The notes beneath the pieces are model-generated. The model worked only from the letters and a program-made list of their open reading frames with translations. It did not search any database and was not told where the DNA came from. A stretch of DNA of 64,000 nucleotides from NCBI GenBank assembly GCA_030390025.1, contig CM059431.1:157296001-157360000 (forward strand). The letters are read 5' to 3'. The stretch's first letter is position 1. Every line of letters begins with the position of its first letter. Both the position numbers and the translations under genes were made by a program. Positions 7,781-59,890 of the stretch are shown here, piece after piece. Source of the DNA: Squalus acanthias. Taxonomy: Eukaryota.

Positions 7781-7914
7781 TGCCGCTCTAGAGGGTCACT
7801 TTGTACTCATCCCCTATCCTGTTCCATCTTCCTGTGTGAGCTGCAGGTTGAGGCATGAGATGTGGTCCCTTTGTCGTGACAGAAATTATATTTTCAAGAT
7901 TTTTGGTTACTTAG

Positions 7915-34257: not shown

Positions 34258-37200
34258 GCGAGTCAGCAGAGGGTGCTGTGAGTTTGGGTAAGTGTGAGAG
34301 TTCTTTAATTGTTAGTTCTCTTTAAATCATTATTGATAAGAGTACTTAAGCAGTTTAAGTGAAGGGGGTAAATTACATATTTGGGATTATGTTGGTTTAA
34401 GAAGAGTCAAACAAGGTTACACAGCAGTAGGATTAAATTAGCACAGCAGGCAGTTGAAACCAGTTTTCTAACCAATCAGCAGCGGTGATTCATTTGGCTG
34501 TAAACAAACAAACAGTATAAAAAGACCAGTGCTCGTGCGAGCACTGAGTGCGAGTCAGCAGAGAGTGCTGTGAGTTTGGGTAAGTGTGATTTCGGGTGAG
34601 TGGGGTGTAGGGTGCTCTTTTTAAACTTTAACTCTGCGGGTTGTAGTTAATAAGGCCTTTCTGGTGCAGAGTGCAGTTGGTAAGCCATTTCACTGGTGTA
34701 ATTTAGAGGGATTAATTTAATTTCAATTCAATTAATTAAAGGGGATACTAGCATCTATAATCGGGCAGAGAGTGTCGATAACTAACAATAAAAAATTTAA
34801 TTAATTACATAGAATGGAGCAGGTGTTGTGTTACTGTTACGAGATGTGGGAGCCGGTGGACCCCATTGAGGCTCACGGTGATTACATCTGTGACAAGTGT
34901 CTGCTCCTACAGGAACTCCAGCTCCGTGTTATGAGCTGGAGTCTGAGCTTCAGACACTGCGACATATCAGGGAGGGGGAGAAATACCTGGAATCTGTGTT
35001 TCAGGAGGTGGTCACACCTATGAAGTTTATTAATTCAGATGTAGCCCATGGTCAGGGACAGGACGGTGTGACTACGAGTGAGGCAGGTACGGGGATCCAG
35101 GAGGTAGTGTTGGAGGAGCCGCAGCCCTTGCTCTTGTCCAACAGGTTCGAGGTTCTTACTCCCTGTTGGGTCAGGAGCAGGGACTGCAGGGAGGATGAGC
35201 AACCTGGCCAAAGCACCGTGGAACGGGGGCCCATTCAAGAGGGGGGAGTAAATAGAAATGTTGTAGTGGTAGAGGATAGTTTTATTAGGGGGATAGATAG
35301 ACTTCTCTACAGCCGAGAGCGAGAGTCCCGTAGGCTGTGTTGCCTGCCCAGTGCCAGGGTTAAGGACATCTCCTCTGGGCTGGAAAGAAACTTGCAGTGG
35401 GAGGGGGTGGATCCAGTTGTCGTAGTCCATGTTGGTACAAACGACGTAGATAGGACAAGGACGGCGGTTCTGTTAAAGGAGTATGAGCAGCTAGGGGTCA
35501 AATTCAAAATCATAACCTCAAGGGTAATAATCTCTGGATTATTACCTGAGCCACGAGCAAATTTGGATAGGACAAATAAAATTAGAGAGTTAAATGAGTG
35601 GCTCAAAGACCGGTGTGTGCGAAATGGGTTTTGGTTCCTGGGACACTGACACCAGTACTGGGGAAAGAGGGAGCTGTTCCGTTGGGACGAGCTTCACTTG
35701 GCCAGTGCTGGGACTAGAGTCCTGGCGGATCAGAAAACTAGGGTTGTAGAGAGGGCTTTAAACTAACTAGTGGGAGTGGAGGTTCCTAGAGAGCAAATAA
35801 TAAAAATGACAACAGAGAAGGTCATAGACTTAGGTAGCAGTGAGGAAATTAAAAAACAGAGTGTGTCAGGAAGGGGCAGAAGGTATGGAGTAAAAGGTAA
35901 AGTAATAAAATTAGCAAAAGCAGGAACTAAGTGTCACAAAACATATTTGAAAGTTCTCTATCTGAATGCACGCAGCATTCGTAACAAAATAGACGAGTTT
36001 ATGGCACAAATAACGACATATGGGTATGATCTTGTGGCCATTACAGAAACATAGCTGCAGGGTGACTATGCCTGGTAATTAAACATACCAGGTTATTTAA
36101 CGATCTGGAAGGACAGGCAGGAAGGAAGGGGAGGTGGGATGACAATGTTAATAAAGGAAGGAATCACTGTAATACAGAGAAATAATATTGGGTAAAAAGA
36201 TCAGGATAATGAAAGAGTTTGGGTGGAGATAAGGAATAATAAGGGGAAAAAACATTAGTGGGTGCAGTCGATAGGCTTCCGAACAGTTGCAAATCTGTTG
36301 GACGGAGTATCAATCAGGAAATAGTTGAGGCTTGTAATAAGGGAACAGCTTTAATTATGGGTGATCTTAACTATCATATTAATTGGACAAATCAAATTGG
36401 GCAGGGCTGCCTTTAGGATGAGTACATTGAGTCTATTAGGGATCGGTTTCTTGAGCAGTATGTAACTGAACCGACCAGGGGGCAAGCAACCTTAGATCTG
36501 GTCCTGCGTGAGGAGACAGGATGAATTAAAAATGTCCTAGTAAAGGATCCCCTTGGAATGAGAAACCATAACATGGTTGAATTGCATATTCAATCAGAGG
36601 GTGAGAAGGTTGGATCTCAAACAAGCGTGCTAAGATTGAATAAAGGAGACTATGAAGGTATGCGAGTGGATTAGAGGAGAGAGGATTGGGAAAAAAGATT
36701 AAAGGGTAAGGCGATATATGATCAGTGGTGTACATTTAAGGATTTACTTTACAACTTCCAAAAAATATATATTCCACTGAGAAGAAAAGGGTGTAAAAGT
36801 AAAGACAGTCATCCGTGGATAATTAAAGAAATTAAGGAAGTATTCGACTGAAAACAAGGGCTATTCAGGTAGCCAAATCTAGTGGGAGGATAGAGGATTT
36901 GGAAAACTTTAAAAGACAGCAAAAAATAACAAAAAGATTGATTAAGAAAGGGAAGATAGATTATGAAAGTACATTAGCAAAAAATATAACAACAGATAGT
37001 AAGAATTTTTATAGTTATATAAAAAGAAAAAGGGTGGCTAAAGTAAATGTTGATCCCTTAGAGGATAAGACCGGGAAATTAATGGTGGGAAATATGGAGA
37101 TGGTAAAAACACTGAATGAATATTTTGTATCAGTCTTTACAGTAGATGACACTAAGAATATCCCAACACTGGACAAACATGGGGCTATAGTGGGGAGGAG

Positions 37201-38980
37201 CTAAAAACGATCAAAATCACTAAAGAAGTGGTACTCGGTAAAATAATGGCACTCAAGGCGGATAAATCACCTGGACCTGATTGCTTACATCCTAGGATCT
37301 TGAAGGAAGGGGCGGTAGGGAATGTGGATGCATTGGTAATAATTTTCGAAAACTCCCTGGACTCAGCAAAGATCCCGGCAGACTGGAAAACTGCTAATGT
37401 AACACCCTTATTTAAAAAGGGCAGTAGAGAGAAGGTTGGAAACAATAGCCTAACATCTGTGGTAGGTAAAATGTTGGAGTCCATTATTAAGGAGACAGTA
37501 ACGGGACATTTGGATAATCATAATTTAAGAGGACAAAGTCAGCATGGTTTTATGAAGTGGAAGTCATGTTTGACAAATTTGCTGAAGTTATTTGAGGAAG
37601 TAACATATAGTGTGGATAAAGGGGAACCAGTGGATGTGGTGTATTTAGACATCCAAAAGGCATTTGACAAGCTGTCACACAAAAGATTATTGATTAAGAT
37701 AAAAAATCACGGGATTGGGGGTAATATACTGGCATGGATAGAGGATTGGCTATCTAACAGAAGGCAGAGAGTTGGGTTAAATGGTTCATTCTCAGACTGG
37801 CAATCAGTAACCTGTGGTGTTCCGCAGGTGTCAGTGCTGGGTCCCCAAATCTTTACAATCTATATTAACGATTTGGAGGAGGGGACCGAGTGTAACATAT
37901 CAAAGTTTGCAGATGACACTGAGATGGGAGGGAAAATAGTGAGTGAGGAGGACATAGAAAATCAGTAAGGGGACTTAGACAGGCTAAGTAAGTGGGCAGA
38001 GATTTGGCAGATGGAATACAATACTGGGAAGTGTGAGGTTATGCACTTTGGCAGGAAAAATAGTAGAGCAAGTTATTACCTAAATGGCAATATACTGGAA
38101 AGTACTGAAGTACAAAGGGATCTGGGGATCCTGGTGCACGAAACTCAAAAGGTTAGTATGCAGGTGTAGCAAGTGATTAAGAAGGCCAACGGAATGTTTA
38201 CTTTCATTGCTAGGGGGATAGAATATAAATATAGGGAGGTATTGCTTCAGTTGTACAATGTATTGGTGAGACCGCACCTGGAATACTGAATACAGTTTTG
38301 GTGTCCTTACTTAAGAAAAGACATACTTGCTCTCGAGTCAGTACAAAGAAGGTTCACTCGGTTAATCCCGGGGATGAGGGGATGAACATATGAGGAGAGG
38401 TTGGGTAGATTGGGACTCTACTCATTGGAGTTCAGAAGAATGAGAGACGATCTTATTGAAACATATAAGATTGTGAAGGGGTTGGAACGGGTGGATGCGG
38501 GGAGGATGTTCCCGAAGATGGGTGAAACTAGAACTAGGGCGCATAGTCTTATAATAAGGGACTGCTCTTTCAAAACTGAGATGAGGAGGAACTAGTTCAC
38601 TCAGAGGGTGGTAGGTACATGGAATACGCTGCCCCAAAAAGCTATAGAAGCTACATCATTACATAAATTTAAAACAGAAATAGGCAGTTTCCTAGAAGTA
38701 AAGGGAATTAAGGCTGTCGGGGAGCGCACAGGAATTTGGGCATGAGTCTCGGTTCGGATCGGTCATGGCCCTGTGGGTAGCGGATTGGGCCCAGGGGCCG
38801 TGTAGCCTGATCCTGCTCCTATTTCGTGTGTCCAATTCTGTTAGATTCAGGAGATGGTTCTGTGATAGTAGATTGGCGGTTAGGATCAGATCAGCCATGA
38901 TCTTATTGATATGCGGAGCAGGCTCGAGGGGCCAATTGGCCGACTCCTGCTCCTATTTCTTATGTTCTTATGTTCTTATG
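34258..38980 (+). mobile_element. Near full-length degenerate CR1 LINE inserted in an L2
   Basis: ORF1 (CYCYEMWE...CDKC; esterase VHVGTND; 34814-35649), endonuclease YLNARSIRNK, RT (37228..37968), (TTCTTATG)n tail; L2 sequence resumes at 38981. Confidence 0.96.
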
Positions 38981-41500: not shown

Positions 41501-42209
41501 TTGTTTAATATTTTGGATTTGCTGAGTTCGAGGACATAAGCTGGCAGGAATCAAGGCATTAGTTTGCATATCCAATAGACTGGATGAATGTTGCGAGTCC
41601 TTGTTGATACGTGAGATAATGCAGATTGTGAGAGGTTAGAAATTAAGAAAGTGTTTAGTTCGATGTTAATATTGTTGCAGGGAAAGTGTTAGAAAGGCAG
41701 AGTGAGGCAGCCATGATGTGATGTGCAAAGTAGCAGAGAAATCGAAGCAAAGATTTGAGACGTTCACTTGAACTCTCCAGAGATCCGCGCCACCGGCAGT
41801 GGCTCAAACCAATCAGATGGTTCACTGGAAAAATAGAGCTGCTTTGATAGAGAATAAAGGAAAACTCAAGGGCTTTAATGCGACAGTTTAGCTTTTATAC
41901 ATCAGTAAATATCTTCCCGTGAGATTAGAATTATATCGCTATTACAAGTTTTATCTAACTCCAGAATTTCCTTTGGGGCTGAGCTGAGGACGCATGATGG
42001 TTACGCTGCTACTAAATTATTACATTATTCATTTCGATTCGTCTGGGCTTGCCCCTTGCCATCCTGTAATTTGGGGTAATTGATCAATTGATACGACAGC
42101 CTCTATGTCCGCTTTCCGAAACTACAATAAACCAATCCCATGCAGAAATATGGGCACTGAATTACCTTAACAGCGAGACGTTGCACAGTGAATTAACAGA
42201 CCTGGATTC

Positions 42210-42535
42210 AGTCCTGGCCCCCAGGTTGTTGATTGTGGCCGATTCGCCGATGGTAATGGCATTAAATATCAAGGGGTGCTGATGTGACTCTCTCTTGTTC
42301 GAGATGTTCATTGCCTGGCACTTGAGTTGCGCAAATGTTACTTGCCACTTATCCGGCCAAACCTAGATGTTGTCCAGGTATTACTTCATACGGGGATAGA
42401 CTGCTTCATTATTGGTGGAATTGCGAATGGAGCTGATCACTGTGCAATCATTAGTGATCAGCCCCAATTCTGAACTTATAATAGATGGCCATTGAAGAAG
42501 CACTTACCGATAATCGGGCCTTGGACGCTGCCAAG
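42210..42535 (-). mobile_element. Old CR1-group RT fragment; paralogs ~56385-56710 and ~62655-62980
   Basis: WPDKWQVTFAQLKVQAMNISSKRESHHLSLIFNGITI (ORF 56356..56562). Confidence 0.8.
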
Positions 42536-42790
42536 AAGCAAACATAATTATACCATGAGATGATGTTCTCTCATTATTTAATGCATTAATTGAAGATTAA
42601 AGAACAGATTAGTTTACCAGAGATATATTTCAGTAGTGCGCTTCAAATGTTGTTTTCATTGGCATCGGACTCAATTTCAGCGTCACTATTGAGTACTGCT
42701 TATATCGATGGGTTGCACGAAATACAGTTAATCTAAAACTGACTCATGACTCATTTAACACTATGAGATTCCACCTTATGTGTTGCATAC

Positions 42791-42951
42791 CTCATGATCT
42801 GCTTCAGTAAACACGTCTCCATCAAAAGGCTTCTGACTAACAGCCTCCACGTTTTCTTCAATTGAATGCTCTAGTCTCTGATGGCAGCACTCGATAATTC
42901 TCCGCAGCTGGATATCCGTGTACCTCTGCAGCGTCAGCAAGGTTTTAGTAT
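42791..42951 (-). CDS. CARD/death-fold-like exon A (161 nt, phase 1-0)
   Basis: ttcag|AT ... GAG|GTATGC; open frame TKTLLTLQRYTDIQLRRIIECCHQRLEHSIEENVEAVSQKPFDGDVFTEADHE. Fold assignment is from helical pattern and recalled similarity to shark NLR N-termini. Confidence 0.7.
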
Positions 42952-44341
42952 CTGAATTTAATGTCAAGTTGTAAATGAGAACAGATTAAAATACTGAGCC
43001 CGCTATTAAACAATGAATTATCTGGACCAACTGATATAGCAACAGCTTTTATTAAAGCCTTTCAAGCAGTGATAACGCCAGTGGCGCCTCACAGAGGAGG
43101 AATTAAGAATCAATGCTGTCTCTTTTTGGTATAGTTCGGAGGACCGACCCAGGACTTGCAGCATTCGGAGATTGGTTAAACTAAGTAAGAAGTAGAAAGA
43201 GGGGGGTCCTTAGGAATGGAGTCAGTGGGATTGACGTCTTTGCCTGGAGTGCAGAGCAGAAGATCCGATACACTATTGTCCACAGCGAAGGAGAAGTGTG
43301 TAACAGAGGGGATGTTAAGAATACTGTTGGGTTAAGATGGGCGGGGCCGTAGATTTTGTTGAAGATCACTAGGACCATTTCACACATGATCAGTTTGGGA
43401 GAAGAAGTGAATGTAAGTCAGTAACTAAGCATTTTACGGATCAATGGAACTGAGGGTGAATTGGAATTTAAGCAATAGAGCTGTGGAAAAGCTGGAGCTC
43501 GGCCCACATGTCGTTTGAGGTATCCTTTCTAAAGCTCACCAAAGCATCGATAAAGTACCAGCAAATATTCTTATGGAGTGCGTGTCCAGAAAATTAACTT
43601 ATAATTTTTCCTGACGGTGATCTGAGACTCCAGTTTGAATTAATGTCTTGGAATCAGCAGATGCTGTTGAGCAATTAGACATAGTCGGGCCTTTCACATG
43701 TTTGCTTGAAGAGCAAATAAATAATGTACAAATATTGGAAGTATGAAACACTAAATGCAACTTCATTCGTGCTTCTCTTTTTCCTTCTTTATTTCAAGGA
43801 AAATTAAATTTTGAAACAGGAACTGAGAAATGGAAAAATTGTGAAGCAAAAAGGCAGTCACAATAAACTTTACGATTATCAATACACTGAGTACAGGAAA
43901 CAAAACATTGGGAAATTGTTTTCATTATCAATAGAAAATAATTACAGAAAAACAAATACTTTAGCACAGAAATGACTGCAGCAAGTACAGTTCCGCAATT
44001 AAATGTACACGAGCATAAAACATCAAAGGAATGGGGCGAGGAGGGTGTTGGAGAAAGTCGTGAGAGGTAGCACTACTAAATAAAAACAATACCTCATCAA
44101 CAACAACATAAATATTTATATGGCACCTTTAACGTTAAAAAAAATATTGCAAGGCGCCTGAAGGAATTTTAATGAGGCGTGAACACATACATTCAGGCCG
44201 AAGGAAGTTATCGTAAGGGTTTAGGATGAATAACATTGTTTGTAATCAAAAAAGTGCGTTTTAAGTAGACACTTAAGTAATTAACCGGGGTATAGAGGCG
44301 GAGGCATTTAGGGAATGAATAACAGAGACCGAAAATGTAAC

Positions 44342-44545
44342 TCTTTTCTTCATTATTTGTATTTCCTGCATCACGAGTGCCCGCATTGTTTGCCGCATCA
44401 AGCTGTGCGTAATCTATTCTCCGATGAGATCTCCGCTTTGCCCACCAACAAGTCACAAAGATTCCTAGTGCGTCCAGCAGTATTTCACCGATAAATGCGA
44501 GGGGAATTGTGAATCGTTCGTACATTATTTCAGTATCGTCAATCA
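44342..44545 (-). CDS. Transmembrane and juxtamembrane exon (phase-1 acceptor; donor uncertain)
   Basis: gatttacag|TG; hydrophobic FTIPLAFIGEILLDALGIFVTCWW, then basic AKRRSHRR, then IDYAQL. Possible weak donor A|GTTACA at 44342/44341. Confidence 0.6.
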
Positions 44546-46074
44546 CTGTAAATCATAGTACAGGTTTTGAGCTGTTGTTATGCAAGTATTCATTGACAAT
44601 CCAAACAATCTAAACCAATTTTAACAGCTACAGAAGCGTTAACTTTCGTTTATTGGTTGCGTATCACATTGTTCAGTTCGCTTTTTAATATCCTCTGCTG
44701 TTTTCACGGTTTTTCTTTGTCAGGTAATCGCAATCTTGTGCATTTCTCTACTTTTCCTAAATAACGGATTTATAAGGTGTCGCCTAGAGGTTTATCAATG
44801 ATATTTGCGACCTGTGGCTGAATTGACTGTGCACTTATTTTCATCTATCAGTTCAAAAGTTAGCATTATTGTCACTCAACAATGAACAATCTGTAATATA
44901 TTGGAGCCAATACTTAATAGGATATCGCCAATTAGTTCTGCTTTTGGATTCTGATCCATTAGGATTTTCCTGTTAAAATTGCAATCGAAATAATTCACTG
45001 CTGCAGCTGTTTGCTTCTGCTACAAGGTTGGTCTGCTTAGAGGCAGGAGCTGCATTTTCACAAGTTATATTCCTACAAGAGTTGAATGTACTTTTAGAGA
45101 GATGTGCTTGCATCAGATTCCCCACGAAATACCCGCTAATTCTATTTAGCTTTTATTTATATAACTGTCGTTTCAAATACATGAACAATTGATTAAAAAA
45201 TTGAATTAACCAGAAGCGATTCTGAAATCGGCTGTTGAAATTAAGACTCTTCAGTGGCACTTGAAGTCTTTTAAACGTATAATTAGCAATCATTCGTGGT
45301 TTAATTGTACATTGTTATTGTGTGTCTAAATATCCAATCATATTTAAAACCGCGGCTTCACCAGCATTTTTACCAACTGTTCAGACGGCTAAACCTTGTT
45401 AATTCGATATCCCTAATACTTGTGAATCAACATCCGTATTTCAAATATACGAATTGAAACGTTATCACAACAAACATCCGATCCTGTCAACAGAATAATC
45501 ACGTTTACCGTAAAGTAACGGGATTCGAGTAATTGAGGGGTAAGGGAATAATTTGGCTCCTAATGGCTGGTAGCTGAAGACGAAATTTAAAATACGCTGC
45601 AGATAAGCATTCTAAAATAAAAAATATATGTTTCAGATATGAAGCAGATTTAAATCACTTTGCCGTGCCAGGTACTTATTGGGATTTCTCATTGTTAATT
45701 GTTGCCTGAAACAGAATACAGAAAGTAACATCCTTTGCGATCAGAGACCACATTAGGTTTTACCGCTAGCAAGGTTATTCAGTCACTCCGTTCATGCGTC
45801 AGCACCTTTTTCACCGCTCAGGTTTTATGCAATAAACCAAGTTCCACATTATTCCGTTTGTCTTTTCAATCCCATTACCAGCTGATCAACCCCATCTTCA
45901 CTCAGAATTCGTTTCACTTCGTTACTCTGCTTCCTCCAGATTTCTGCCCACTTGCTCTTATTTAATTTTTGACATTCCATTCTTCACTCCCTCCTTATAA
46001 GTCACGTTGTTTTTGCTTTTCCCTCCTTTCTCCTCGTCGGTACCGATGTTTCCTCTTGACGTTCCTCACTTAAC

Positions 46075-46248
46075 CGGGATCCTGTTGTGATTTAACTGAA
46101 CTTAATTTGTCAGCTAATAAAAGTAATCTCTTCCCTTTATTGACAGGAATGTTGCAGGGGCCGTCTACTACGGTGGCCGAATCAATATCCACCGCCTGAC
46201 AAATTTCTACACGTTTAGTTCCCCTTAGCACCAAGATCAAGCAGGTAG
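46075..46248 (-). CDS. Candidate 174-nt exon (phase 1-1), possible signal-peptide end and short ectodomain
   Basis: Good acceptor gtctttcatttttag|CT; open frame TCLILVLRGTKRVEICQAVDIDSATVVDGPCNIPVNK...SQQDP; weak donor G|GTTAAG. Confidence 0.4.
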
Positions 46249-47129
46249 CTAAAAATGAAAGACAAACCATCTAAATGAATGACCAAGAGGGTTAGCAACT
46301 TGGATTGTGAATTTATTCCACTTAAACCGGTCCGCAACATCAGCCGATATCCCCTCGAAATTCCTTCCCAAGTTTCCACTAGTCTTTTGCTCAAACGGAA
46401 ATTGGATTTGGTCAAGTGCCCCCTGGACCGTGGCCTTCTAATAGGTGGTAAAATGTGCCAGTGCACTCGTGGAGTAATTTTGGCTATTCCCGATAGTGTA
46501 AGACGGGCGATAATTGCTCGGAGATAAACCTATCGATCTCGAATATCGTCCGTTTTACACTAGCTCCAAAGTCTAAAGTTTCCCACAACAGTTAGAGATG
46601 GATTCATCCCGTTATGATAATTCACAGGGGATGTTGAAAACGTGTCCTTAGAGACTTCGCCAGGCGGCAATATGTAGCTTGATAGAATTTGAAAGCTATC
46701 ATAATACTGTAGCATTCACGGACAGGCTTGTTTATCCCTCAGCCTCCGTTTCCGGGTTCGCTAACACAGTTTTTTTTTTCTGGCACAGTAGGAACAAATA
46801 AAGCAAAAGGATGTATATACAGAAATAGCAGGGGTGTGGGACTACTTGTCTAGCTCTTCCTTTCAGCCAGCAGAGGAACGATTGGTCGAAAGGCATCCTT
46901 CAATGTTAAGATTCTATCCAGCGATTTACCGTCAGTTTTCTAACAGCAGTAGGCGATTCAGAATCTCGAGCACGTTTCGCCATTCAATTCGATCATTGCT
47001 TATCTGCATCTTAACTCAATAAAATCGCCTTTGTTCTGTATCCATTAATAGCCTTAGCTTGCAAAAATCTATCGAACTCAGGTTCAATATTATGTCGTCT
47101 CTATTTGCAACAGCAAATTTCTGATTGGA

Positions 47130-47500
47130 GCATTGTAGGACAATTCCACACTTTTTCCATTGTTTTCCTCTCTCTCACATGGCGGCTGTCGATCATTCTG
47201 CCATTGCCTTTTACATTTGATCTAGAGCCATCTTTTGTCCGATTATCATCTGCTTGTGCCTTGCACCACCATCCCTTTTGTCTCTTAATCTCTCCTGCCT
47301 TCCATCCTATCACGAACCATCCCTTCTGTTCTGCCCTCACCTCCCTCCTTTCCCTGCTTCTGAACTTGCTTAAAAACCTGTTCTATCTCCAGCCTTTTAC
47401 AGTTCGGACGAAGTGTGATCGACCTGAAACTTTAACTCTGTGTTTCTGCTCCACAGATGCAGCCTGAACTGCTGTGTATATCCAGCTTTTTCTGTTTTTA
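47130..47500 (+). mobile_element. Penelope-like element terminal fragment
   Basis: Pyrimidine-rich tract ending cggacgaagtgtgatcgacctgaaactttaactctg...ccacagatgcagcctgaactgctg, a pattern typical of fish PLE termini. Confidence 0.55.
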
Positions 47501-47554
47501 TCTATGGGTTAATAGTCGAGTAACATAAAAACTATGCTTCCGTTCCATTAGCAG

Positions 47555-47860
47555 ATGTGTATGGAGATTTACAGTGTATCGGGATCCTGTCAAATTTGTA
47601 TGCGGATAGCGTTTATTGGGATCCTGCCAGATGAGTCTCGGAGAGTTAGTGTAACAACATTCAGACAGATGTGCACAGTGAATCGCAGCCTAACAGGTTA
47701 CATCCTGATGTGTACGTGGATTCACAGTTCATCAGCATACTGTCAGTATGGGGTTTCACAGTGTATCAGCATACTGCCTGTTCAGTATGGATCTTCGAAG
47801 TTTATCGGGTACCGGACAGGTGTGTATGCTGTTTCACGGTGTAACGGGATGCTCCAGCTG
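47555..47860. repeat. Degenerate ~35-39 bp tandem repeat (~8 units)
   Basis: Recurring gtgtatggxgxttxacagtgtatcgggatcctgxcag-like units. Confidence 0.6.
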
Positions 47861-47887
47861 GGCACACAAACGTTTCTTTATATTCAG

Positions 47888-47895
47888 TCATATAC
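47888..47895 (-). CDS. Coding part of a candidate terminal exon (phase 1: G-I-stop)
   Basis: tgcatttattttcag|GT ATA TGA, compatible with the phase-1 donor of exon B at 53570; (TA)n at 47909-47932 lies just upstream. Confidence 0.35.
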
Positions 47896-49786
47896 CTGAA
47901 AATAAATGCATATATATATATATATATATATACATCATTATCAAAATAAGAAGTTGCCATATTTGGGAGAGCAGTGGAGCTGTATTACACCCACGAAAAG
48001 CAGGAATGTGCAGGTTGAAATCTCCGCTTCAAATAGGTAAACACATTATCGGATCAGAGCAGAACACAATCCGCACAAACTTCAATCGTACCGCTATTGA
48101 ATTCTATTGAAACTGATGGAAGGGCTCATCAGACCGAGCGCTTAACGGACAGCAGAGAATCATAAATTGTTACAGCACAGAAGGAGACCATTTGGCCCGT
48201 CGAGCCGATGCCGGATCTCCGGAAGAGCACTGCAGCGAGTCCCACAGCTCAGCGTTTTCCCCTTAGCTCTGCACATTTTTTTTTACTTCAGGAAATTACC
48301 CAATTACCTTTTGAAATCCACGATTGAGTCGGCCTCCAAAATCCTTGCAGACAGCGCATTTGAGACTCTAACCACTTGTTGCATGAAAAAAGTTTTTCCT
48401 CATGTCGCCTTTGGTACTTCTGCCCATCACCTTAAATCTGTGATCTTTGGTTCGCGACCCTTCCACCAATAGGAACAGTTTCTTTCTCTCTTTCTACTCT
48501 GTCTAGAACCCTCATGATTTTGAACACATCTATCAAATCTCCTCTCAAACTTCTCTACTCTAAGGAGAACACAGCCAGCTTTTCCAGTCAATCCACATAA
48601 CCAAAGTCGCTCATCCCTGGAACCATTCTTGTAAATCTTTTCTGCAGTCTCTCTAAGGCCTTCACATTCTTCCTAAAGTGCGGTGCCCAGAATTGGGCAC
48701 AATTCTCCAGTTGTGGTCGTGGCAGTGTTTATTAAAGCTTCTTTATAACTTCTTTGCTTTTGTACTCTATTACTCTATTTATGAAGCCGAGTTTACCGTA
48801 AGCTTTTTAAACACTTTCTCAGCCAGCCCTGATACCTTCAAAGATTTGTATTCATATACCCCCAGGTATTACTGATCATGTAGCCCGTTTAGAATTGTAC
48901 CCTTTATTTTATATTGCCTCTCCTCGTTCTTCCTACCAAAATGTATCATTCGCACGATTCTGCGTTAAATTCATCTTCTACCACATGTCCGCCCATTCTA
49001 CCAGCCTGTCTATGTCCTCTTGTAGACTTTCACTATTCTTCTCACTGTCAGTATACTTCCAAGTATTGTGTGATTTCCAAATTTTGAAATTGGGCCCGGT
49101 ACACTCAAGTCCAAATTATAACTCTATATCCAGAAAAGCAGTGGTCCTCGTTCCGCCCACCGGGAAACACATTCCTCCAGTCCAAAAAACAAACGTTCCC
49201 CAATACTATCTGATTCCTGTTACTAAGCCAATTTCGCATCAACGCTGCCACTGTCGCTTTTATTCCATGGGTTTCAACTTTGCTGTCTAGCCTACTAAGT
49301 GGCATTTTATCAAACGTCTTTTGGAAGTACATGTACGCCACGTCAACCGCATTGCTCTCGACAGCAAAACTACCCTCTCTGTTGCAGCATCAATTTTTTT
49401 TAAGTTAGTTAAACACGAGTTGCCTTTGACAAATCCGTGCTGACTTTACTTCATCAATCCACACTTGTCCAAGTGACTGATAATTTTGTCCCCATTTTTC
49501 GTTTATAACAGCTTCCCCATTACCGGGTTAAATTGACTGATCTGTAGTTGCTGGATGTAACATTTGCAATGTTGCAGTCCACTGGCACCACTCCCGTACA
49601 TAAGGATGATTGGAAGATTATGGGTAGTACCTCCACAATTTTCACCCTTACCTCCCTCAGCATCCTAGGATTCATCCCATCCGATCACCCAGCCTTTTAG
49701 TACCTCCTCTTTATCAATATTTATCCCATTCAGTATTGCAACTACTTCCTCTTTCACGTGACGTTGACAGCATCTTTTTCCTTAAC

Positions 49787-52700
49787 ATAAGAAATAGGAG
49801 CAGGAGTAGGCCAATTGGCCCCTCGAGCCTGCTCCGCTATTCAATAAGATCATGGCTGATCTGATCCTAACCGCCAATCTACTATCACAGAACCATCTCC
49901 TGAACCTAACAGAATTGGACACACGCAATAGGAGCAGGATCAGGCTACACGGTCCCTGGGCCCGCTACGCTACCCACAGGGTCATGACCGATCCGAACCT
50001 AGACTCATGTCCAAATTCCTGCCCGATCCCCGTAACCCTTAATACCCTTTACTTCTAGGAAACTGTCTAATCCTGTTTTAAATTTATGTAATGATTTTGC
50101 TTATGCAGCTTTTTGGGGCAGCTTTTTCCTTGGACCTACCACCCTCTGAGTGAAGTAGTTCCTTCTGATCTCAGCCCCTTCTTCTAAGACTATGCCCCCT
50201 AGTTCTAGTTTCACCCATCATCGGGAACATCCTCCACGCATCCACCCGATCCAACCCCTTCACAATCTTATATGATTCAATAAGATCGCCTTTCATTCTT
50301 CTGAACTCCAATGAGTATAGTCCCAATCTACACAACCTCTCCTCATATGTCCATCCCCTCATCCCCGGGATTAACCGAGTGACCCTTCTTTGTACTGACT
50401 CGAGAGCAAGTATACATTTTCTTAAGTATGGACATCAAAACTGTATGCAGTATTCCAGGTGCGGTCTCACCAATACCTTGTACAACTGAAGCAATACCTC
50501 CCTATTTTTATATTCTATCCACCCAGCAATAAAAGCCAACATTCAATTGGCCTTCTTAATCACTAGCTGCACCTGCATACTAACCTTTTGAGTTTCGTGC
50601 AGCAGGACCCCCAGATCCCTTTGTACTTCAGTACTTTCCAGTTTCTTGCCATTAAGATAATAACTTGCTCTTCTATTTGTCCTGCCAAAGTGCATAACCT
50701 CACACTTTCCAGTATTGTATTCCATCTGCCAAATCTCTGCCCACTTACTTAGCCTGTCTATGTCCCCTTGCAGATTTTTTATGCCCTCCTCACTCACTAC
50801 TTTCCCTCCCATCTTAGAATCATCTGCAAAATTTGATATGTTACACTCGGTCCCCTCCTCCAAATCGTTAATATAGATTGTAAAGAGTTGGGGACCCAGC
50901 ACTGACCCCTGCGGAATACCACTAGTTACTGATTGCCAGTCTGAGAACGAACAATTTATCCCAACTCTCTGCCTTCTTTTAGATAGCCAATCCTCTATCC
51001 ATGCCATAATATTACCCCCAATCCCGTGATTTTTTATCTTAAGCAATAATCTTTAGTGTGGCACCTTGTCAAATGCCTTTTGGAAGTCTAAATACACCAC
51101 ATCCACTAGTTCCCCTTTATCCACCCTGTATGTTACTTCCTCAAAGAACTCCAGCAAATTTGTCAAACTTAACTTCCCCTTCATATAACCATGCTGACTT
51201 TGTCCTATTAAATTATGATTATCCAAATGTCCCGTTACTGTCTCCTTAATAATGGACTCCCAAATTTTACCTACCACAGATGATAGGCTAACTGGTCTAT
51301 AGTTTCCAGCATTCTGTCTACTGCCATTTTTAAATAAGGGTGTGACATTAGCAGTTTTCCAGTCTTCCGGTATCTTTGCTGAGTCCAGGGAGTTTTGGAA
51401 AATTATTACCAATGCATCCACAATCCCTACCGCCACTTTCCTCAAAACCCTAGGATGTAAGTCATCAGGTCAAGGTGATTTACCCGCCTTGAGTCCCATT
51501 ATTTTGCCGAGTACCACTTCCTTAGTGATTTTGATCTTGTTTAGCACCTCGCCCCCTATAGCCCCCTGTTTGTCCAGTGTTGGGATATTCTTAGTGTCCT
51601 CTACTGTAAAGACTGATATAAAATATCCATTTAGTGTATTTGCCATCTCCATATTTCCCACCATTAATTTCCCGGACTCATCCTCTAAGGGACCAACATT
51701 TACTTTAGCCACCCTTTTTCTTTTTATATCACGATTAAAACTCTTACTAGCTGTTTTTATATTTTTTGCCAATTTACTTTCATAATCTATCTTCCCTTTC
51801 TTAATCAATCTTTTTGTTATTTTTTGCTGTCTTTTAAAGTTTTCCCAATCCTTTATCCTCCCACTAGATTTGGCTACCTTATAAGCTCTTGTTTTTAGTC
51901 GATTACTATCCTTAATTTCTTTACACTAGACACGGATGACTGTCTTTTCTTTTACACCCTTTTATTCTCAGTGGAATATATATTTTTTGGAAGTTGTAAA
52001 ATTATTCCTTAAATGTACACCACTGATCATGTATCGTCTTACACTTTAATATATTTTCCCAAGCCACTCTGCTTAATTCCTTTTGCATACCTTCAAAGTC
52101 TCCTTTATTCAAGCTTAGCACGCTTGTTTGAGATCCAACCTTCTCACCCTCTCATTGAATATGGAATTCAACCATGTTATGGTCACTCATTCCAAGGGGA
52201 TCGTTTACTGGGACATTTTTAATTAATCCTGTCTTGATACACTGTACCAGATCTAAGGTTGCTTGCCCCCTGGTCGGTTCAGTTACATACTGCTCAAGAA
52301 ACCCATCCCTAATACACTCAATGAACTCATCCTCAAGGCAGCCCTGCCCAATTTGATTTGTCCAATTAATATGATAGTTAAAATTCCCCATAATTAAAGG
52401 TGTTCCCTTATAACAAACCTCAACTATTTCCTGATTGATATTCCGTCCAACAGAGTTGCAACTGTTCGGAGGCCTATAGACTATGCCCACTAGTGTTTTT
52501 TTCCCCTTATTTTTCCTTATATCCATCCAAACTGTTTCATTATCCTGATCTTTTGACCCAATATCATTTCTCTGTATTACAGTGATTCCTTCCTTTATTA
52601 ACATAGCCACCCCACCTCCCCTTCCTTCCTGCCTGTCCTTCCTGATCGTTAAATAACCTGGTATGTTTAATTCACAGGCATTGTCACCCTGCAGCCATGT

Positions 52701-53034
52701 TTCTGTAATGGCCACAAGATCACACCCATATGTAGTTATTTGTGCCATTAACTCGTCTATTTTGTTACGAATGCTGCGTGCATTCAGATAGAGATCTTTC
52801 AAATATGTTTTGTGACACTTAGTTCCTGCTTTTGCCCTTTTTATTACTTTACCTTTTACTCCATACCTTCTGCCCCTTCCTGACACACTCTGGTTTTTAA
52901 TTTCCCTCTGCTACCAAAGGCTATGACCTTCTCTGTTGTCATTTTTATTATTTGCTCTCTAGGAACCTCCCCCCCACTAGTTAGTTTAAAGCCCTCTCTA
53001 CAACCCTCGTTATATTATCCGCCAGGACTCTTGG
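49787..53034 (-). mobile_element. 5'-truncated CR1, same family as 34258-38980, opposite orientation
   Basis: EN and RT ORFs 50171-52886 nearly identical to those of 35770-38595; TAAC target duplication at 49783-49786 and 53035-53038. Confidence 0.96.
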
Positions 53035-53184
53035 TAACGTCAGCTGCAAAGTACTCAGTTAGTAAGTCAGCCATGCCCTCTGTCTGCATGCATAGGTATC
53101 CGTTTTGGTCCATCGTCGGCCCCACCCCTTCTCTTGCTATCTGTTTATTATTTATATGCATACAGAAGACTTTTGGATTCCCTC

Positions 53185-53218
53185 TTAGGGTTAGGGTTAG
53201 GGTTAGGGTTAGGGTTAG
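53185..53218 (+). repeat. Interstitial telomeric repeat (TTAGGG)5 TTAG
   Basis: Read directly from the sequence. Confidence 0.95.
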
Positions 53219-53569
53219 TTGCCAGTCTATTCTCATCCTCTCTCTTTGCGCCTCTCATTTCCTTTTTCTCTTCCACTCTTAAATTTCTGTGCTCAGTAGC
53301 GATGCGGCCCGTTCTTGGCGAAGCTATACGACAGGCGATATTGCATTGATGGCCTATTTTGCACTTCGCCCGAATAAACTTGAATATAACTGAATACCGG
53401 GCGTGCTTTAACACGTTCGGCAAATGCGAATCCGCCTGTTTTGTTTATCCACCCATGTAGAATTTCAACCTCACAGACTTACTTAAATAAGGTCCTCGCC
53501 ATAAATAATGAACTTTATTTCTCTGACAGTAAACACGATTTTTGCATGTTAGATTTGGACACAACATAC

Positions 53570-53762
53570 CTTTTAGGTCATTTTGTACCTCTGTACCACT
53601 GTTCCGTATCTCTGACAATGTCGCTTTCAGCTTGGGATTTGTATCCAGCAGACATATGTTCCAGATTGGTCTTACTGCCCGAGCTCCTTTTTCTACCACG
53701 TTATTGACAATCTGTCGTGAAGCATGGCTTCTGCAGTGTCTTTGAACAAGGGTTCTGTTTCT
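53570..53762 (-). CDS. CARD/death-fold-like exon B (193 nt, phase 0-1)
   Basis: ttttttttag|AGA ... AAA G|GTATGT; open frame RNRTLVQRHCRSHASRQIVNNVVEKGARAVRPIWNICLLDTNPKLKATLSEIRNSGTEVQNDLK. Confidence 0.75.
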
Positions 53763-56700
53763 CTAAAAAAAATTGCAATCACATTGAGCCAAGTAACACA
53801 GTGATCAGTGAAGAAATTCTTTTCACTTTCTCCCTCTCTTTATGATATGAATGAACAGGAAATCTCACAATCGTGTGTTCAGAAGCTTGTTCAAAGTGGA
53901 AAGATTTAAGGAGCTTCATAATGGACAGGATTAGCGAAGGGATTTCAGAGCTTAGGGCCGAGGCAGCTGGAGACACTGCTGCCAATGGTGAGGCGAAGAA
54001 CATCGGGGATGAGCAAATGCGCAGAATTGGATGAGCACAGAGATCACGGAGTTTTGCAGAGACAGAGAGGAGCATCGTTGAGCCATCCAGGAAAACACTA
54101 AATTCTCAGCTAATAAATGCAAAAGGATAAAGTGCTGAATAAAAGGGGGAACATTAAGTTCGCAGGAATAGGATTCTACCAAAATCAAGAATTATTGGTT
54201 GTCAGTAACAGTAATGATTTGGAAAGCTCACAACGTGGTTAAAGAAACTCAAATTGCAGAAATTGAAAAACATAAAAATGTGTGTGAATTTTTTGTAGCT
54301 AGCAGCACGAAAGGTGCTGATAGCGAATCGCTGGCCCACTTTACGCCGCGTTGGAGCTTTCATTCTATTTGCTTCATTGAGCCTTTAACTCATTCCAAGT
54401 ATCACTTTCATTCATCGAAACATTAGCAATAGCTGATCAGTCACTCCTTCATGCTCTATATGAAACACCTAGTTTACATCTGCAAACAGCTCTGTCCTTT
54501 GATTAACAGTTTTTGGAGGAGTTTATGAAATATGATAATTGTCACTAATTCTGACACATGCCACTCATTCGTTTCATACAATATGAACGTTTTCGCTTCT
54601 ATTTTATATTCTCCATGTTTTCTTGATTTGCTTTGCTTAATCAGCCTTACTACCCTATATTTCCTTCAAAATCTCTTTTTTCGGTCATTTTCTATGCACC
54701 TCCAAGCGATTCTCGTTTGTGCTGCACCTCTTTTATTCTCGTGTATTTTGTGTATCTTCTATGGCAATATTCTCCTATTTGGCAGAGTCTTATTGTTTCT
54801 CCGTGGCTTTTTCTGGACATTAACGTGCCAATATATCTGGGCAAGTATTTTAGGTTCGTTAAAATTAGTTTTATTCCTGTAAAATGTATATTGCTTTGAT
54901 TGTCACGTTACCTACTACAGCTTATATGAATCCTAATGATACCATATTTTCCTGGATGCTCCACTTCCCTTAGATCAATTACTACTCCCTCCCCGTTTCT
55001 AGAAATTGAACAAATTCACATTCATTCCTTGTTTTCCTAAAACCGTAGCAATCTAAACAAACTACCGTACAGGGTGCAAATACCATGCCCTTTCTCCCAC
55101 ACTTATGTTACTTCTATCATTTGGATATTTAAAGTCACCAGTCACTCTGTTACTGTTATTGCTGCACTTTCTCAATGTTTCTCTATTTCTCTTCTTCTAT
55201 CCATTCCCCACTATTCGATGCATGATAATAGCTCCTTTATTATTCTGTAACCCCAAACTTATAGATTAATTTTGCGAAGCATTCCTTATATCAGTCCTGA
55301 GTTCCCGTGCTGCAATTGAATCTTTTAATAATACCTTCTCCCTATTTTCTTTGAAATTTGATTCCCCATTAATGTATAATAACATGACACGTTAGCTTCT
55401 AATCCTGTCCTTACCTAAATCAGATAAGCTATTAATGTCTGTACATCATAATTTATAGCATATCCCCAGACAGTCTGTGCATTCAACTAACCAGCTATAT
55501 TCGGACCATTTTGTATATGCATGTGTTAGGTAAAGGTAGGAGTTATTCGGAAAAGCGAGCATCTGGACATATTAGCTGAGTCCAGAGATTGTTTTTATTA
55601 AATGGGTCATTATAACAGTTTTACGTCAGAGGATGATGACTCAGGAGAGGCCAGTATTTGTGACGACACTGAGTAGTGAGCCGAAGAAGGGGCTTGACCT
55701 GAGCTGGCCAGGAATCAAGGCATTATGTTGAATATCCCATAGACTGGATGATTGTTGCGTGTCTTCAATGATACGGGACATAATGCAGATTGTGAGAGTT
55801 CAGAAAATAAGAAAGTGTTTATTTCCATTTAAAGATTGTGGCAGGGAATGCATTAGAAAGGCTGAGAGAGGCAGCCATGCTCTGAAGTGCAAAGGAGCAC
55901 AGAAATCGAAGCAACGATTTAGATACGGTCACTACAAATTTCTAGGGATTCGTGCGACCGGCAATGGATAAAACCAATCAAATGATTCACTGGAAAAACA
56001 GCGCTGCTTTGATAGAGAATGTGCGGAATCTCACGGCCTTTTATTCCGAAAGTTCAGCTTGTATACGTCAGTTAATTTCATCATGTGATATTAGAAGTAT
56101 GTAACTATTACAAGTTTTATCTTTCTCCAGGTTTTCCACCGCGATTATGCTGAGCACGCATGATGGTAGTGCTGCTAGTGGTGTCTTATTACATTATTAA
56201 TTTCGATTCGTCTTGGCTTGGCTCAAGCAATCCTGCAATTTGGGGTAATTGATCGATTGTTAGGACGCCCTCTATGCATCAGCTTTCAGAAACTGGAGTA
56301 AATCCATCAACCTGCAGAAATTCAACCACTGGAATTACCTTAACAGCCGCACGTTTTACAGTGAATTCACAGAGCAGGTTTTAGTCATGTCCTCCAGGAT
56401 CTTGATGGTGGCCGAATCGCCGATCGTAATTCCATTAAATATCAGGGAGAGATGATGTGACTCTCTCTTGCTGGAGATGTTCATTGCCTGGACCTTGAGT
56501 TGCGCGAATGTGACTTGCCACTTATCCGGCCAAACCTGGATGATTTTCAGGTCTAGCTTCATATGGGGATCGGCTTTTTTATAATTGGAGCAAATTGTGA
56601 ATGTATCTGAACTCTATGCAATCATCAGAGACTAGCCCCAATTCTGACCTCATGAGGGATGATCATTGAAGAAGCACTCAACGATAGTTGGGCCTAGTTC

Positions 56701-56964
56701 GCTGCCATGAAGCAAACATAGTTAAACCATGAGATGCTGATCTCTCACTATTTAATTGATTAATTGAAAATTAAAGAACACGTTAAATTACCAGAGATAT
56801 ATCTCAGAGGAGCACTTAAGAAAGTGTTTTCAATGGCATCGGACTGAATTTCAGCGTCACTATTGACTACTGCTTATATCGTTGTGTTGCACGTAATTCA
56901 GTTAATCTAATTCTGACTCATGACTCGTTTAACACTATGAGATTCCATCATATATGTTCCATAC

Positions 56965-57125
56965 CTCATGATCTGTTTCAGTAATCACTTTTACATCTAA
57001 AAACATCTGACTAACAGCCTCCACGAGTTCTTCAATTGAATATTCTGGTCTCTGACGGCAGTACTCGATAATTCTCCGCAGCTTGATATCCATGTTGCTC
57101 TTCAGAATCAGTAAGGTTTTATTAT
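56965..57125 (-). CDS. CARD/death-fold-like exon A (161 nt, phase 1-0)
   Basis: ttcag|AT ... GAG|GTATGG; open frame NKTLLILKSNMDIKLRRIIEYCRQRPEYSIEELVEAVSQMFLDVKVITETDHE. Confidence 0.72.
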
Positions 57126-59890
57126 CTGAATTTAATGTCAAGGTGTAAATGAGAAAAGATTAAAATACTATGCCCGCTATAAAACAATGAATACTCTGGA
57201 CCAATTGATAAAACAAAGCCGTTTATTAAAGCCTTTAAAGCAGTGATACCGCAAGTGGCGCCTCAAAGAGGAGGAATTAGGAATTAATGTTGTCCTTTTC
57301 TGTCATAGTAAGGAAGAACGACCCACTCGTGGCAAAATTCGGAGGCTGGTTAAAGTAAGTAAGAAGTAGAAAGAGGGGGGCCCTTAGAAATGGAGTCAGT
57401 AGGATTCACATCTTTGTCTGGAGAACAGAGCAGAAGAACCGATACACTAGAGACCGCAGCGAGGGAGAAGTGTGTAACAGAGGTGATGTCAAGAAGTCTG
57501 TAGGGATAAGGTGAGTGGGGCCGTAGATTTAGTTGAAGATGAGCAGGACCATTTCACACATGATCAATTTGGGTTAAGAATTGAATGTAAGTCAGTGACC
57601 AAATGGTATACGGAACTGAGGGTGAATTTGAATTGAAGCAATAGAGCTGTGGACAAACTGGAGTTTATTATGGGCTAGGTCCACACGTCGTTTGAGGAAT
57701 CGAGTCTGAATCTCACAAGAGCGTGGATAAAGTACCAGCAAATATTCACATGGAAGTGCATGGCCAGAAATATAACCTATAATTGTTCCAGACGGTGATC
57801 TGAGACTCCAGGTTTGATTTAATGATTTAGATTCAGCAGATGCTGTTGAACAATTAGACATATTCGGGCCTTTCACATGTTTGCCTGAAGAGCTAATAAA
57901 TAACATACAGAGATTAGTAGTATAAAACACTAAGTGCAACTTCATTCGTGCTTCCATTTTCCCTTCTTTATTCCAAGGAAGACTAAATTTTGAAACAGGA
58001 ACTGAGAAATGGAAATATTGTGAAGCCAACAGGCAGTCACACTAAACTTTACAGATATCAATACACCGAGTACAGGAAACAAATCTTTGGGAAAAAAGTT
58101 TTCATTATCAATAGAAACTAATCACACAAAGACAAATACTTTAGCTTAGACATGACTGTAGCTAGTACAGTTCCACAATTAAATCTCCGGTCAACCGTCT
58201 CTGCTCTATGAAGAACACAACCACCTTCTCCAGTCAATCCAAATAACCAAAGTCTCTCATCCCTGGAATCATTGTTGTAAATCTTTTCTGCACTCTCTCT
58301 AAGGCCTTCACATATTTCCTAAAGTGCGGTCCCAGAATTGGACACAATACAGCAGTTGAGGTCGAGGCAGTGTTTAATAAATGTTCATTATAACTTATAT
58401 GCTTTTGTCCTCTATTCCTCTATTTATGAAGCCCGTCTCCCATAAGCTTTTTAAACTCGTTATAAACCTGCCCTGATACCTTCAACGAAATGTGCTCATA
58501 TACCCCCAGGTGTCTCTGATAATGCTGCCCGTTTAGAATTGTACCCTTTATTGTATACTGCCTCTCCTCGTTCCTCCGAACAAAATATATCATTTCGCAC
58601 GTTTCTGCTTTAAATTTATTCTACCACGTTTCCGCCCATTTCACCAGCCTGTCTATGTCCTCTTGAAGTCTATCACTTTTCTTTTCACTTTTACCTATAC
58701 TTCCAAGAATTTTGTGATCTGCAAATTTCGAATTTGTGCACGGTACATCCAAGTTCAAATCATAATTATATATCCAGAAACGCAGTGGTCCTAGTACGGA
58801 TCCAAGGGGAACACCTTCCTCCAGTCCGAAAAACAACCGTTCCCCAATATTATCGGTTTCCTGTCACTGAGCCAATTTAATATGGATGCTGCCACTGTCC
58901 CTTTTATTCGATGGGTTTCAATTTGCTGTCAAGCATATTAAGTGGCACTTTACCAAACGACTTTTGGAAGTCGATGTACATCACGTCAACCGCATTGCCC
59001 TCACCATTCCGCCACAACACCCCACCCCCGCACCCTCTCTGTTACCGCATCAGAAAAATCAATCAATTTCGTTAAACACGATTTGCTTTTGTAAAATCCG
59101 TGTTGACTTTCCTTAATCAATCCACATTTGTCGAAGTGGCTGTTAATTTTGGCAAGATTTATCGTTTCTAAAAGCTTCCCCATTAAACAGTTTAAACTGA
59201 CTGGTTCGTAGTTGCTGGGTTTATCCGTACACCTTCTTTTGAACGAGGGTGTAACATTTGCAATGTTCCAGTCCTCTGGCACCTCCCCATATCTAAGAAT
59301 GATGGGAAGATTATGGCCAGTAACTGCGAAATTTTCAACCTTTCCTCCCTCAGCATCCTGGGATTCATACCATCCGGTCAGCCAGCCTTTCTAGTACCTC
59401 CTCTTTATCAATTTTTATCCCATCCAGTATTGCAACTACCTCCTCTTTCGCTATGACCTTTACAGCATCTTATTCCTTTTTAAAGTCAAATGCAAAGTAC
59501 TCATTTAGTAACTCAGCCATGCCATCTGCCTGCATGTGTAGGTCTCTTTTTTGTTCCCTAGTTGGCCCCACCCCTTCTCTTACTAACAATGTATTATTTA
59601 TATGCATATAGAAAACTTTTGGATTCCCTTATATGTTAGCTGCCAGTCATTTCTCATCCTCTCTCTTTGTCCCTCTTACTTCCTTTTTCATTCCCCTCTT
59701 AAATTTCTATGTTCAGGTGTGATACCGCCCGTTTTCGTGGAAGCTCTACTACAGGCGGTATTGCATCGATCGCCCATGTAGAATTTCATCCTCACAGACT
59801 AATTTAAATAAGATCCTCGCCATAAATAAAGAACTTTTTACTCTAACGGTAAACACGGTCTTTTGCAAGTTATAATTGGACACCACATAC

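Follow-up and report, generated by a model that had tools for sequence, protein, structure and literature searches.

How an NLR effector domain could come to stand beside a membrane anchor is a question raised by a 64,000-nucleotide (nt) stretch of the Squalus acanthias genome (contig CM059431.1, here C7; C7:157296001-157360000; assembly size 3.7 Gb), which we refer to as the window. In one part of it, a short exon with a signal-peptide-like start (E1), an exon encoding a predicted transmembrane (TM) segment, and an exon resembling part of an NLR effector domain (A1) follow one another in compatible phase. A first-pass annotation of this DNA took the arrangement to reflect an ancestral small gene comprising a short ectodomain, a TM segment, a death fold and a stop, without a NACHT domain. 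Our analysis points to a different history. The stretch itself is not a new small receptor gene; with moderate confidence, we favor the reading that it is a 5' fragment of a truncated, decaying paralog within a cartilaginous-fish NLR subfamily of the form TM-(CARD)n-NACHT-LRR.

An exon pair encoding a CARD module

Three copies of exon A and two of exon B are found in the window. A1 (42791-42951) has an intact open reading frame (ORF) and two intact splice sites (phase-1 acceptor ttcAG, donor GAG/GTATGC, the slash marking the junction). A2 (56965-57125) is followed by B2 (53570-53762), which would encode the second half of the module and ends in a phase-1 donor, and A3 (63235-63395) and B3 (59891-60089) lie farther upstream. 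These exons, together with E1 and the TM exon, all lie on the minus strand, and their splice sites are predicted. Self-comparison detects an A-containing unit three times (41533-44004, 55696-58184, and 61974-64000; ~82% identity) and an A-to-B unit twice (53452-57729 and 59773-64000; 84% identity), while E1 and the TM exon are each single-copy within the window and neither is found upstream of A2. Exon A measures 161 nt and exon B 199 nt; because they sum to 360 nt, or 120 codons, with intron phases of 1, 0, and 1, B can splice in frame to the next A.

Structural models indicate that A and B together encode one CARD, with exon A predicted to contribute a pre-helix and the first CARD helices, and exon B the remainder. 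Sequence searches with the exons themselves did not reveal this relationship: the window exons scanned singly gave no Pfam match, PDB sequence searches with A and B profiles returned no CARD, and an exon-A profile compared with longer proteins scored none of 123 candidates. Against 1.84 billion representative proteins, a search with a B2/B3 profile (E ≤ 0.001) returned 42 proteins. Ten of these were looked up by name, of which nine derive from sharks, rays or a chimaera, and the genera recorded were Scyliorhinus, Mustelus, Cetorhinus, Hemitrygon, Hypanus, Pristis, and Callorhinchus. NACHT is present in 18 of the 42, usually with NOD2_WH, NLRC4_HD2, and LRR_6. The first-pass annotation proposed that A and B resemble the N-terminal effector of an expanded shark NLR family, and this is borne out both by these NACHT-bearing homologs and by the motifs that it named, which recur in hits such as P0017. 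The Pfam CARD family (PF00619; cut-off 23.9 bits) scores 30.3 bits in P0005, 23.4 in P0003, and 22.9 in P0004. Several homologs carry the module in chains. The Scyliorhinus protein P0001 has three A-B modules plus an extra A, the Mustelus protein P0002 has three modules before its NACHT-LRR region, and P0003, P0004, and P0005 have two each.

The CARD fold was tested on AlphaFold models of these homologs, not on the window's own spliced product. The model of P0023 (mean predicted local distance difference test, pLDDT, of 89.2, from a 32-sequence alignment) aligns over near-whole chains with the CARDs of NLRC4, ARC, CARD8, NOD1, Apaf-1, RIP2, and others, with VIA-align Z of 9-11.6. For NLRC4, ARC, CARD8, and NOD1 the scores are 10.5-11.6 with 82-94 residues aligned, mostly the near-whole CARD chain. 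Among the 35 rows with Z ≥ 6, 34 are CARD or CARD-containing entries. Foldseek E-values for the same model are weak (0.28-4), but the leading stand-alone CARD chains reach target-normalized TM-scores of 0.71-0.81. P0004, which represents the subgroup closest to the window, has a second module that is 44-52% identical to A1-A3 and ~50% identical to B3. This module (residues 160-261, pLDDT 86-98) gives CARD matches with Z of 10-12, including all 87 of 87 residues of ARC, after which non-CARD rows fall sharply to Z ≤ 4.1. The death fold expected of A and B by the first-pass annotation is thereby recovered in both homolog models.

Tandem arrays and the scar of a NACHT exon

Across the genome, we detected at least 113 copies of exon A (seven with stops) and scored at least 150 copies of exon B out of 433 candidates (three with stops). 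Nearly all are located at C7 153.7-159.6 Mb, where A and B copies alternate. Arrays with 12 or more modules stop ~2 kb before open-frame NACHT exons, for example at C7:153798536, 154712648, and 155517705. The A-B pair is a module repeated within genes and does not constitute a gene of its own. These arrangements suggest that NLR genes in a cartilaginous fish can have, at the effector end, in-frame CARD arrays of up to a dozen modules or more. It had been proposed that B runs into a short exon reading G-I-stop rather than into a NACHT exon; this fails elsewhere in the genome, where the last B of long arrays precedes an intact NACHT exon within ~2 kb.

One such array, at C7:153719776-153800260, shows strict B/A alternation (13 B and 12 A among the copies listed) and lies ~2 kb upstream of a NACHT exon with a 614-residue open frame; the corresponding gene would be an NLR whose tandem CARD modules number a dozen or more. 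Similar arrays are present at C7 154.61-154.71 and 155.45-155.52 Mb, with the second array, some 0.9 Mb away, apparently a segmental duplicate of the first.

The window itself retains the scar of a NACHT exon (47281-48156, minus strand). Positions 48156-47938 match DNA upstream of NACHT exons, and 47500-47281 match DNA just 3' of them. At two independent NACHT loci (L038 and L036) these flanks are spaced by 2586 and 2572 nt with a NACHT exon between them, as against 438 nt in the window. Because both flanks are retained while the exon is deleted, NACHT appears to have been lost secondarily, not absent from the start. The filler between the flanks comprises a (TA)n tract and ~400 nt of minisatellite-like repeats, and it holds the acceptor at 47895 from which the G-I-stop exon had been read. 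The AG at this position does follow A2 and B2 as described, but it lies in deletion filler and the G-I-stop reading after it is not conserved in a sister array. Using three homologs (P0002, P0007, and P0010) as queries, tblastn found no NACHT or LRR sequence in the window or within 20 kb to either side of it. Between B2 and the scar, LINE (long interspersed nuclear element) insertions with RVT_1 and Exo_endo_phos ORFs occupy 48532-53031.

The sister array lies in mirror orientation at C7:158020678-158089490 (L041, L047-L061, and L035) and carries the same NACHT deletion at 86% identity. The order runs from an E1 whose stop is shared with the copy beyond window position 64000, through a degenerate TM exon and nine A-B modules, all intact, to the deletion; 13 and 36 kb beyond it there are two NACHT exons with frameshifts. 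The unit upstream of the scar in the window and the sister array share both the E1 stop and the degenerate TM segment (~13 hydrophobic residues, no basic cluster), and these lesions therefore predate the duplication that produced the two.

In the window and sister array together, all 12 A and all 11 B exons are open, with no frameshift and with conserved splice sites. Divergence is 10.5% for A against 15.3% for its flanks, and 9.1% for B (without B2) against 20.9%, while the pooled ratio of non-synonymous to synonymous substitution rates (dN/dS) of these modules is ~0.9-1.2. In a neutral simulation, the probability that every copy stays stop-free was 0.0002 for A, and this outcome arose in 0 of 5000 runs for B, values obtained with a star-shaped tree that overstates the independence of the copies. 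Frames are thus kept while amino acids are free to change, which suggests coding constraint combined with diversification. It is conceivable, although rather unlikely, that some sharks make membrane-anchored NLR members, in which a conserved TM exon would hold a cytosolic tandem CARD array at a membrane with or without NACHT-LRR, and that the NACHT-less arrays (A3-B3-A2-B2 and the nine-module sister) are selected as CARD-polymer scaffolds or decoys. If true, NLR signaling would have a membrane-bound or multivalent variety not known in other vertebrates.

B2 is an outlier among these modules. It is 24.5% diverged from the array consensus, against 9-12% for its flanks, with synonymous and non-synonymous changes both raised and a 6-nt in-frame deletion. 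The exon resembles a patch taken over from a more distantly related paralog.

Exon E1, the transmembrane exon and the window copy

Exon E1 (46075-46248; 174 nt, phase 1-1) has an acceptor AG at 46250-46249 and a donor G/GTTAAG. It lies within an ORF (46073-46270) that starts with an ATG (46270-46268) followed by a hydrophobic, signal-peptide-like stretch of 14 residues with a mean hydropathy of 2.86. Read directly from the minus strand, the coordinates, order, and phases of E1, the TM exon, and A1 are as first annotated. The notion that E1 is an upstream ectodomain exon fares less well. It has 25 matches in the genome, ~1.5 kb upstream of the TM exons of a close subgroup described below, and 14 of these contain stops; among 17 aligned copies, nine have a stop inside the exon body, and the ATG is missing from many. 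Stops are more frequent in E1 than in A (14/25 against 7/113; Fisher p = 5e-8), in B (p = 1.5e-11), or in the TM part, which is open at 16 of 16 loci, as against 11 of 25 matches for E1 (p = 1.4e-4). E1 is conserved as DNA beside the TM exon, and it appears to behave like unconstrained DNA, leaving its coding status doubtful. It has no similarity to the P0002 N-terminus, with 1919 of 2000 shuffles reaching at least its score, and a Pfam scan of E1 gave no cysteine-rich match of the death-receptor type.

Three further candidates from this region were considered and rejected. E1 as a degenerate LRR exon was set aside since the E1/TM region has no homology to the LRR exons of neighboring loci. 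An ORF at 46735-46899 as the leader exon of P0002, and the N-terminus of P0004 as a remnant of the TM exon starting at a conserved Met, were both not significant.

The TM exon (44331-44545), in contrast to E1, is in all probability a genuine exon of this family. It has the acceptor tttacAG/TG and an ORF that is open up to a stop at 44211; its donor is uncertain. The exon encodes a hydrophobic segment of 24 residues (44442-44513), including one E and one D, followed directly by a basic stop-transfer sequence, AKRRSHRR (44418-44441). The segment has a Kyte-Doolittle mean of 1.92 over 19 residues and five of the next 12 residues are lysine or arginine, which by hydropathy and charge count describes a TM helix with a positive-inside flank. 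Among 89 hydrophobic ORFs of at least 40 residues in the window, no other is followed by at least four lysine or arginine residues within 12. Eighteen matches to the exon were found in the same genome, with 16 distinct loci open in the TM part, and two subgroups are seen among them.

The close subgroup comprises nine copies, with the acceptor tttacAG kept in eight of eight and an exon A located 1.3-5 kb downstream on the same strand in seven to eight of nine. One of them, at C7:157363135-157363488, corresponds to window coordinates ~67.1-67.5k and lies upstream of A3, just beyond position 64000, where the first-pass annotation had suggested looking for a TM exon. The distant subgroup (L009, L010, L011, and L013-L016; C7 154.0-159.3 Mb) carries a 129-nt phase 1-1 cassette with a canonical acceptor and donor (G/GTAAGA) in seven of seven copies. 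At three loci this cassette lies ~2.2 kb after a B exon, with an E1-like piece 0.45 kb downstream, such that the DNA order is a circular permutation of that in the window.

The TM exon also resembles the membrane segment in two annotated shark proteins. The Mustelus asterias protein XP_078087540.1 (P0002; 'NACHT, LRR and PYD domains-containing protein 3-like', an NCBI automatic model) has the same A+B modules, with A 48-54% identical to the window copies. Directly before its first A, it features a TM helix, a basic cluster, and a Y..L motif, collinear with the window TM exon. Unlike the window copy, the predicted P0002 goes on to three full modules, NACHT, winged helix, HD2, and LRR, which together with the retained NACHT flanks argues against an ancestral small gene that lacked NACHT. 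Its first ~76 residues have no counterpart in E1, and a query of residues 1-137 found no match in the window's own genome. Local alignments tested against 2000 composition-preserving shuffles were significant: against the P0002 N-terminus, as high a score arose in 3/2000 shuffles for the window TM exon and 7/2000 for the distant TM exon, and against the P0004 C-terminus in 3/2000 and 0/2000, respectively. On the proposed check of whether the TM exon consistently precedes A, the answer is mixed: it does so in P0002 and the close subgroup, whereas in P0004 and the distant subgroup it follows B.

Right after the basic cluster, positions 44391-44408 (minus strand) encode I-D-Y-A-Q-L, which we take to fit the pattern of an immunoreceptor tyrosine-based inhibitory motif. 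The Y..L motif of the Mustelus protein is at the matching place. The match of I-D-Y-A-Q-L to this pattern may well be due to chance.

In the reading that we favor, the effector region of this NLR family consists of a duplicated A+B exon pair, each pair specifying one CARD-fold domain. Because this module is in frame with itself, it has been multiplied in tandem inside genes whose 3' part comprises NACHT and LRR exons. One subgroup has, before the first A of its CARD array, a conserved TM exon that specifies a membrane-adjacent acidic stretch, a hydrophobic helix, and a basic stop-transfer sequence. On topology rules and the one Mustelus gene model, the protein of an intact member would be tethered to the membrane with its CARD array and NACHT-LRR region in the cytosol. 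The window would then hold two damaged units. The first comprises E1 (with a stop), a degenerate TM exon, A3, B3, A2, B2, and the deleted NACHT exon; the second comprises E1, TM, and A1, and is cut off 1.3 kb past A1.

This second unit does not encode a complete CARD, as A1 has no partner B. In agreement with the first-pass annotation, no exon B was found downstream of A1 anywhere in the window and both upstream donors are weak, that of E1 being GTTAAG and the conserved donor of the TM exon being lost. The canonical donor G/GTAAGA of the distant copies is destroyed in the window copy, and relative to copies L002-L004 a 24-nt deletion also removes the alternative donor site GGTGGAG. The similarity to the other A units breaks off at 41533. 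Family exons on the minus strand resume only 62 kb farther on, and 112 kb separate the copy from the closest minus-strand NACHT exon, itself carrying one stop. Exon A in the window shows no better conservation than the flanking DNA, with dN/dS of 1.1-2.6. The closest paralog (C2044), whose TM exon is 91% identical, continues, judged from coordinate lists, into A, B, and a NACHT exon with one stop. Because exon B is missing and the conserved donor is lost, the E1-TM-A1 copy is most likely a pseudogene fragment that makes no functional protein.

The fragment is bracketed by an inverted pair of LINEs: 49784-53031 is an inverted copy of 35716-38966, with 91% identity. Repeats arranged in this way could favor inversion or loss of the intervening DNA. 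The adjoining LINE segment, 48532-49783, resembles 58178-59478.

Several observations weigh against reading the stretch as a decayed fragment of a membrane-anchored NLR gene. The E1, TM, and A1 ORFs are all open in the window copy and its TM segment is among the best preserved in its subgroup, which is somewhat unexpected in an old pseudogene. The splice junctions are predicted from sequence alone. A TM-like segment outside the NACHT/LRR region occurs in only two of the 42 representatives (P0002 and P0004), so that the membrane-anchored architecture is drawn from two automatic gene models, and a gene predictor can chain neighboring genes because all of the exons are phase 1-1. BLASTP of the TM ORF against these two proteins was not significant, and neither the TM-exon alignment searched against longer proteins nor P0002 residues 1-140 searched against shorter proteins yielded further proteins. 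Finally, the NACHT-less A-B arrays of the window and its sister keep open frames, and a NACHT-less product may be in use.

That E1-TM-CARD units make small type I membrane proteins without NACHT, serving as adaptors or decoys with some copies functional, is the model of the first-pass annotation, and we consider it unlikely. Tandem pairs of E1-TM-A-B units do occur at the window, at C7 155.77-155.79 Mb (judged from coordinate lists), and at C7 156.64-156.67 Mb. The window copy has a fitting topology, with a signal-like start, an acidic outer flank, a TM segment, and a basic inner flank, and the NACHT-less A-B arrays retain splice sites as well as frames. Partial duplication has given rise to CARD-only proteins in mammals. 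Set against this are the excess of stops in E1 relative to A, the E1 stop and eroded TM segment of the upstream unit, the retained flanks that point to secondary loss of NACHT, a terminal G-I-stop that is not conserved, and a window copy without exon B. No short annotated protein with the TM-CARD front end of P0002 was found, although this is weak evidence.

An improbable alternative is that the TM exon is a 3' exon, as in MAVS, so that A3-B3-A2-B2 would splice to TM and end at the stop at 44211, with E1 skipped and A1 left over. The Cetorhinus protein XP_078390056.1 (P0004) has this form, with two A+B modules, a TM segment, and a 45-residue tail, and its C-terminus aligns with both TM exons as described above. 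The position of the distant cassette downstream of B at three loci is likewise consistent with a 3' exon, phase 1 is shared by the B donor and the TM acceptor, and neither the weak donors nor E1 are needed. The charge distribution predicts otherwise, since acidic residues before and basic residues after the segment would render the preceding part extracellular and place the CARDs outside. Further, no B is located in the 15-20 kb upstream of the close-subgroup TM copies that belong to unit 3 and the sister array, the strong donor of the distant cassette indicates that it is not a last exon, the Mustelus model has its TM segment before A, and the 76-residue tail after the window TM segment is long for a tail anchor.

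It is very improbable that E1 and the TM exon are noncoding, with chance ORFs in duplicated AT-rich DNA and artefactual TM-containing gene models: E1 does decay like neutral DNA, the distant TM exon (7.7% diverged) is no better conserved than its downstream flank (5.0%), and the TM-exon alignment has no protein-database matches, but the TM part is open at 16 of 16 loci as against 11 of 25 matches for E1, its acceptor is kept in eight of eight close and seven of seven distant copies with a canonical donor in seven of seven distant ones, its likeness to TM regions in two proteins of other species holds up against composition-preserving shuffles, and it is the sole hydrophobic ORF of the window with a basic stop-transfer sequence.

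Related systems and other features of the window

A truncated paralog of a TM-(CARD)n-NACHT-LRR gene would belong to a family that has been noted before, as the whale shark genome paper reports an expanded 'NLRP-related' NLR family of sharks (PMC8455134). The domains carried by the exon-B hits point to the same large lineage-specific family. In the excerpts of that account consulted, the expansion is described by NACHT only, and tandem CARD arrays and a membrane exon are unmentioned. Nor did full-text literature searches or excerpts of a death-fold atlas yield a description of either feature in shark NLRs.

Elsewhere among vertebrate proteins, the separate features of this subfamily have counterparts. 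The usual description of NLRs is of cytosolic sensors that have a single effector domain, two at the most. MAVS tethers a CARD signaling domain to the membrane, and RIG-I, MDA5, and NOD2 feature tandem CARDs; the homolog models match the RIG-I and MAVS CARD entries with Z of 9.8-11.4. However, MAVS has one CARD and a tail anchor, and RIG-I and NOD2, each with two CARDs, lack a TM segment, whereas in the window subgroup the anchor would precede the CARDs and arrays reach from nine to at least 12 modules. The mammalian CARD-only proteins ICEBERG and CARD16/17/18 are truncated duplicates of CARD-coding 5' exons located beside the parent gene, and the ICEBERG structure is among the CARD matches of the homolog models. 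These proteins encode a whole CARD and are expressed; the window copy differs in that it would encode half a CARD together with a TM segment. The death receptors of the TNFR superfamily combine an ectodomain, a TM segment, and a cytosolic death fold, which is the layout that had been proposed for this locus, but they feature cysteine-rich repeats and a death domain, not a CARD.

If transcripts confirm these forms, the family would bear on the influence of valency and membrane tethering on CARD filament nucleation, and on how exon-pair duplication and NACHT loss generate CARD-only derivatives. The locus also carries a lesson for annotation: in families whose exons are all phase 1-1, order and phase compatibility constitute weak evidence for a gene model, and deleted-exon scars and the decay of paralogs need to be checked. 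Three small sequencing runs with the same species label, whose kind could only be guessed, cover just repeats and parts of LINEs within 42000-61999. They contain essentially nothing on the exons, their joints all fall within repeats, and they are uninformative on expression.

The remainder of the window has the character of LINE-rich vertebrate DNA. Among its 198 ORFs of at least 75 residues, Pfam matches at or above the curated cut-offs are confined to reverse transcriptase, endonuclease, and GDSL-lipase/OSK families, the last of which are possibly also LINE-derived; a few sub-threshold matches are to unrelated families, and NACHT, LRR, and CARD gave no match among these ORFs. A pseudo-copy of exon A with one in-frame stop (TAA) lies on the plus strand at 3269-3427 (C7:157299272), and near it is a short inverted fragment of exon A at ~3880-3936 on the minus strand. 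At 7605-9788 (plus strand), a 728-residue open frame with a strong RVT_1 match (E = 2e-31) may represent a young LINE copy. Finally, a minisatellite at 23179-23750, with self-match offsets in multiples of 45 nt, features long ORFs on both strands.

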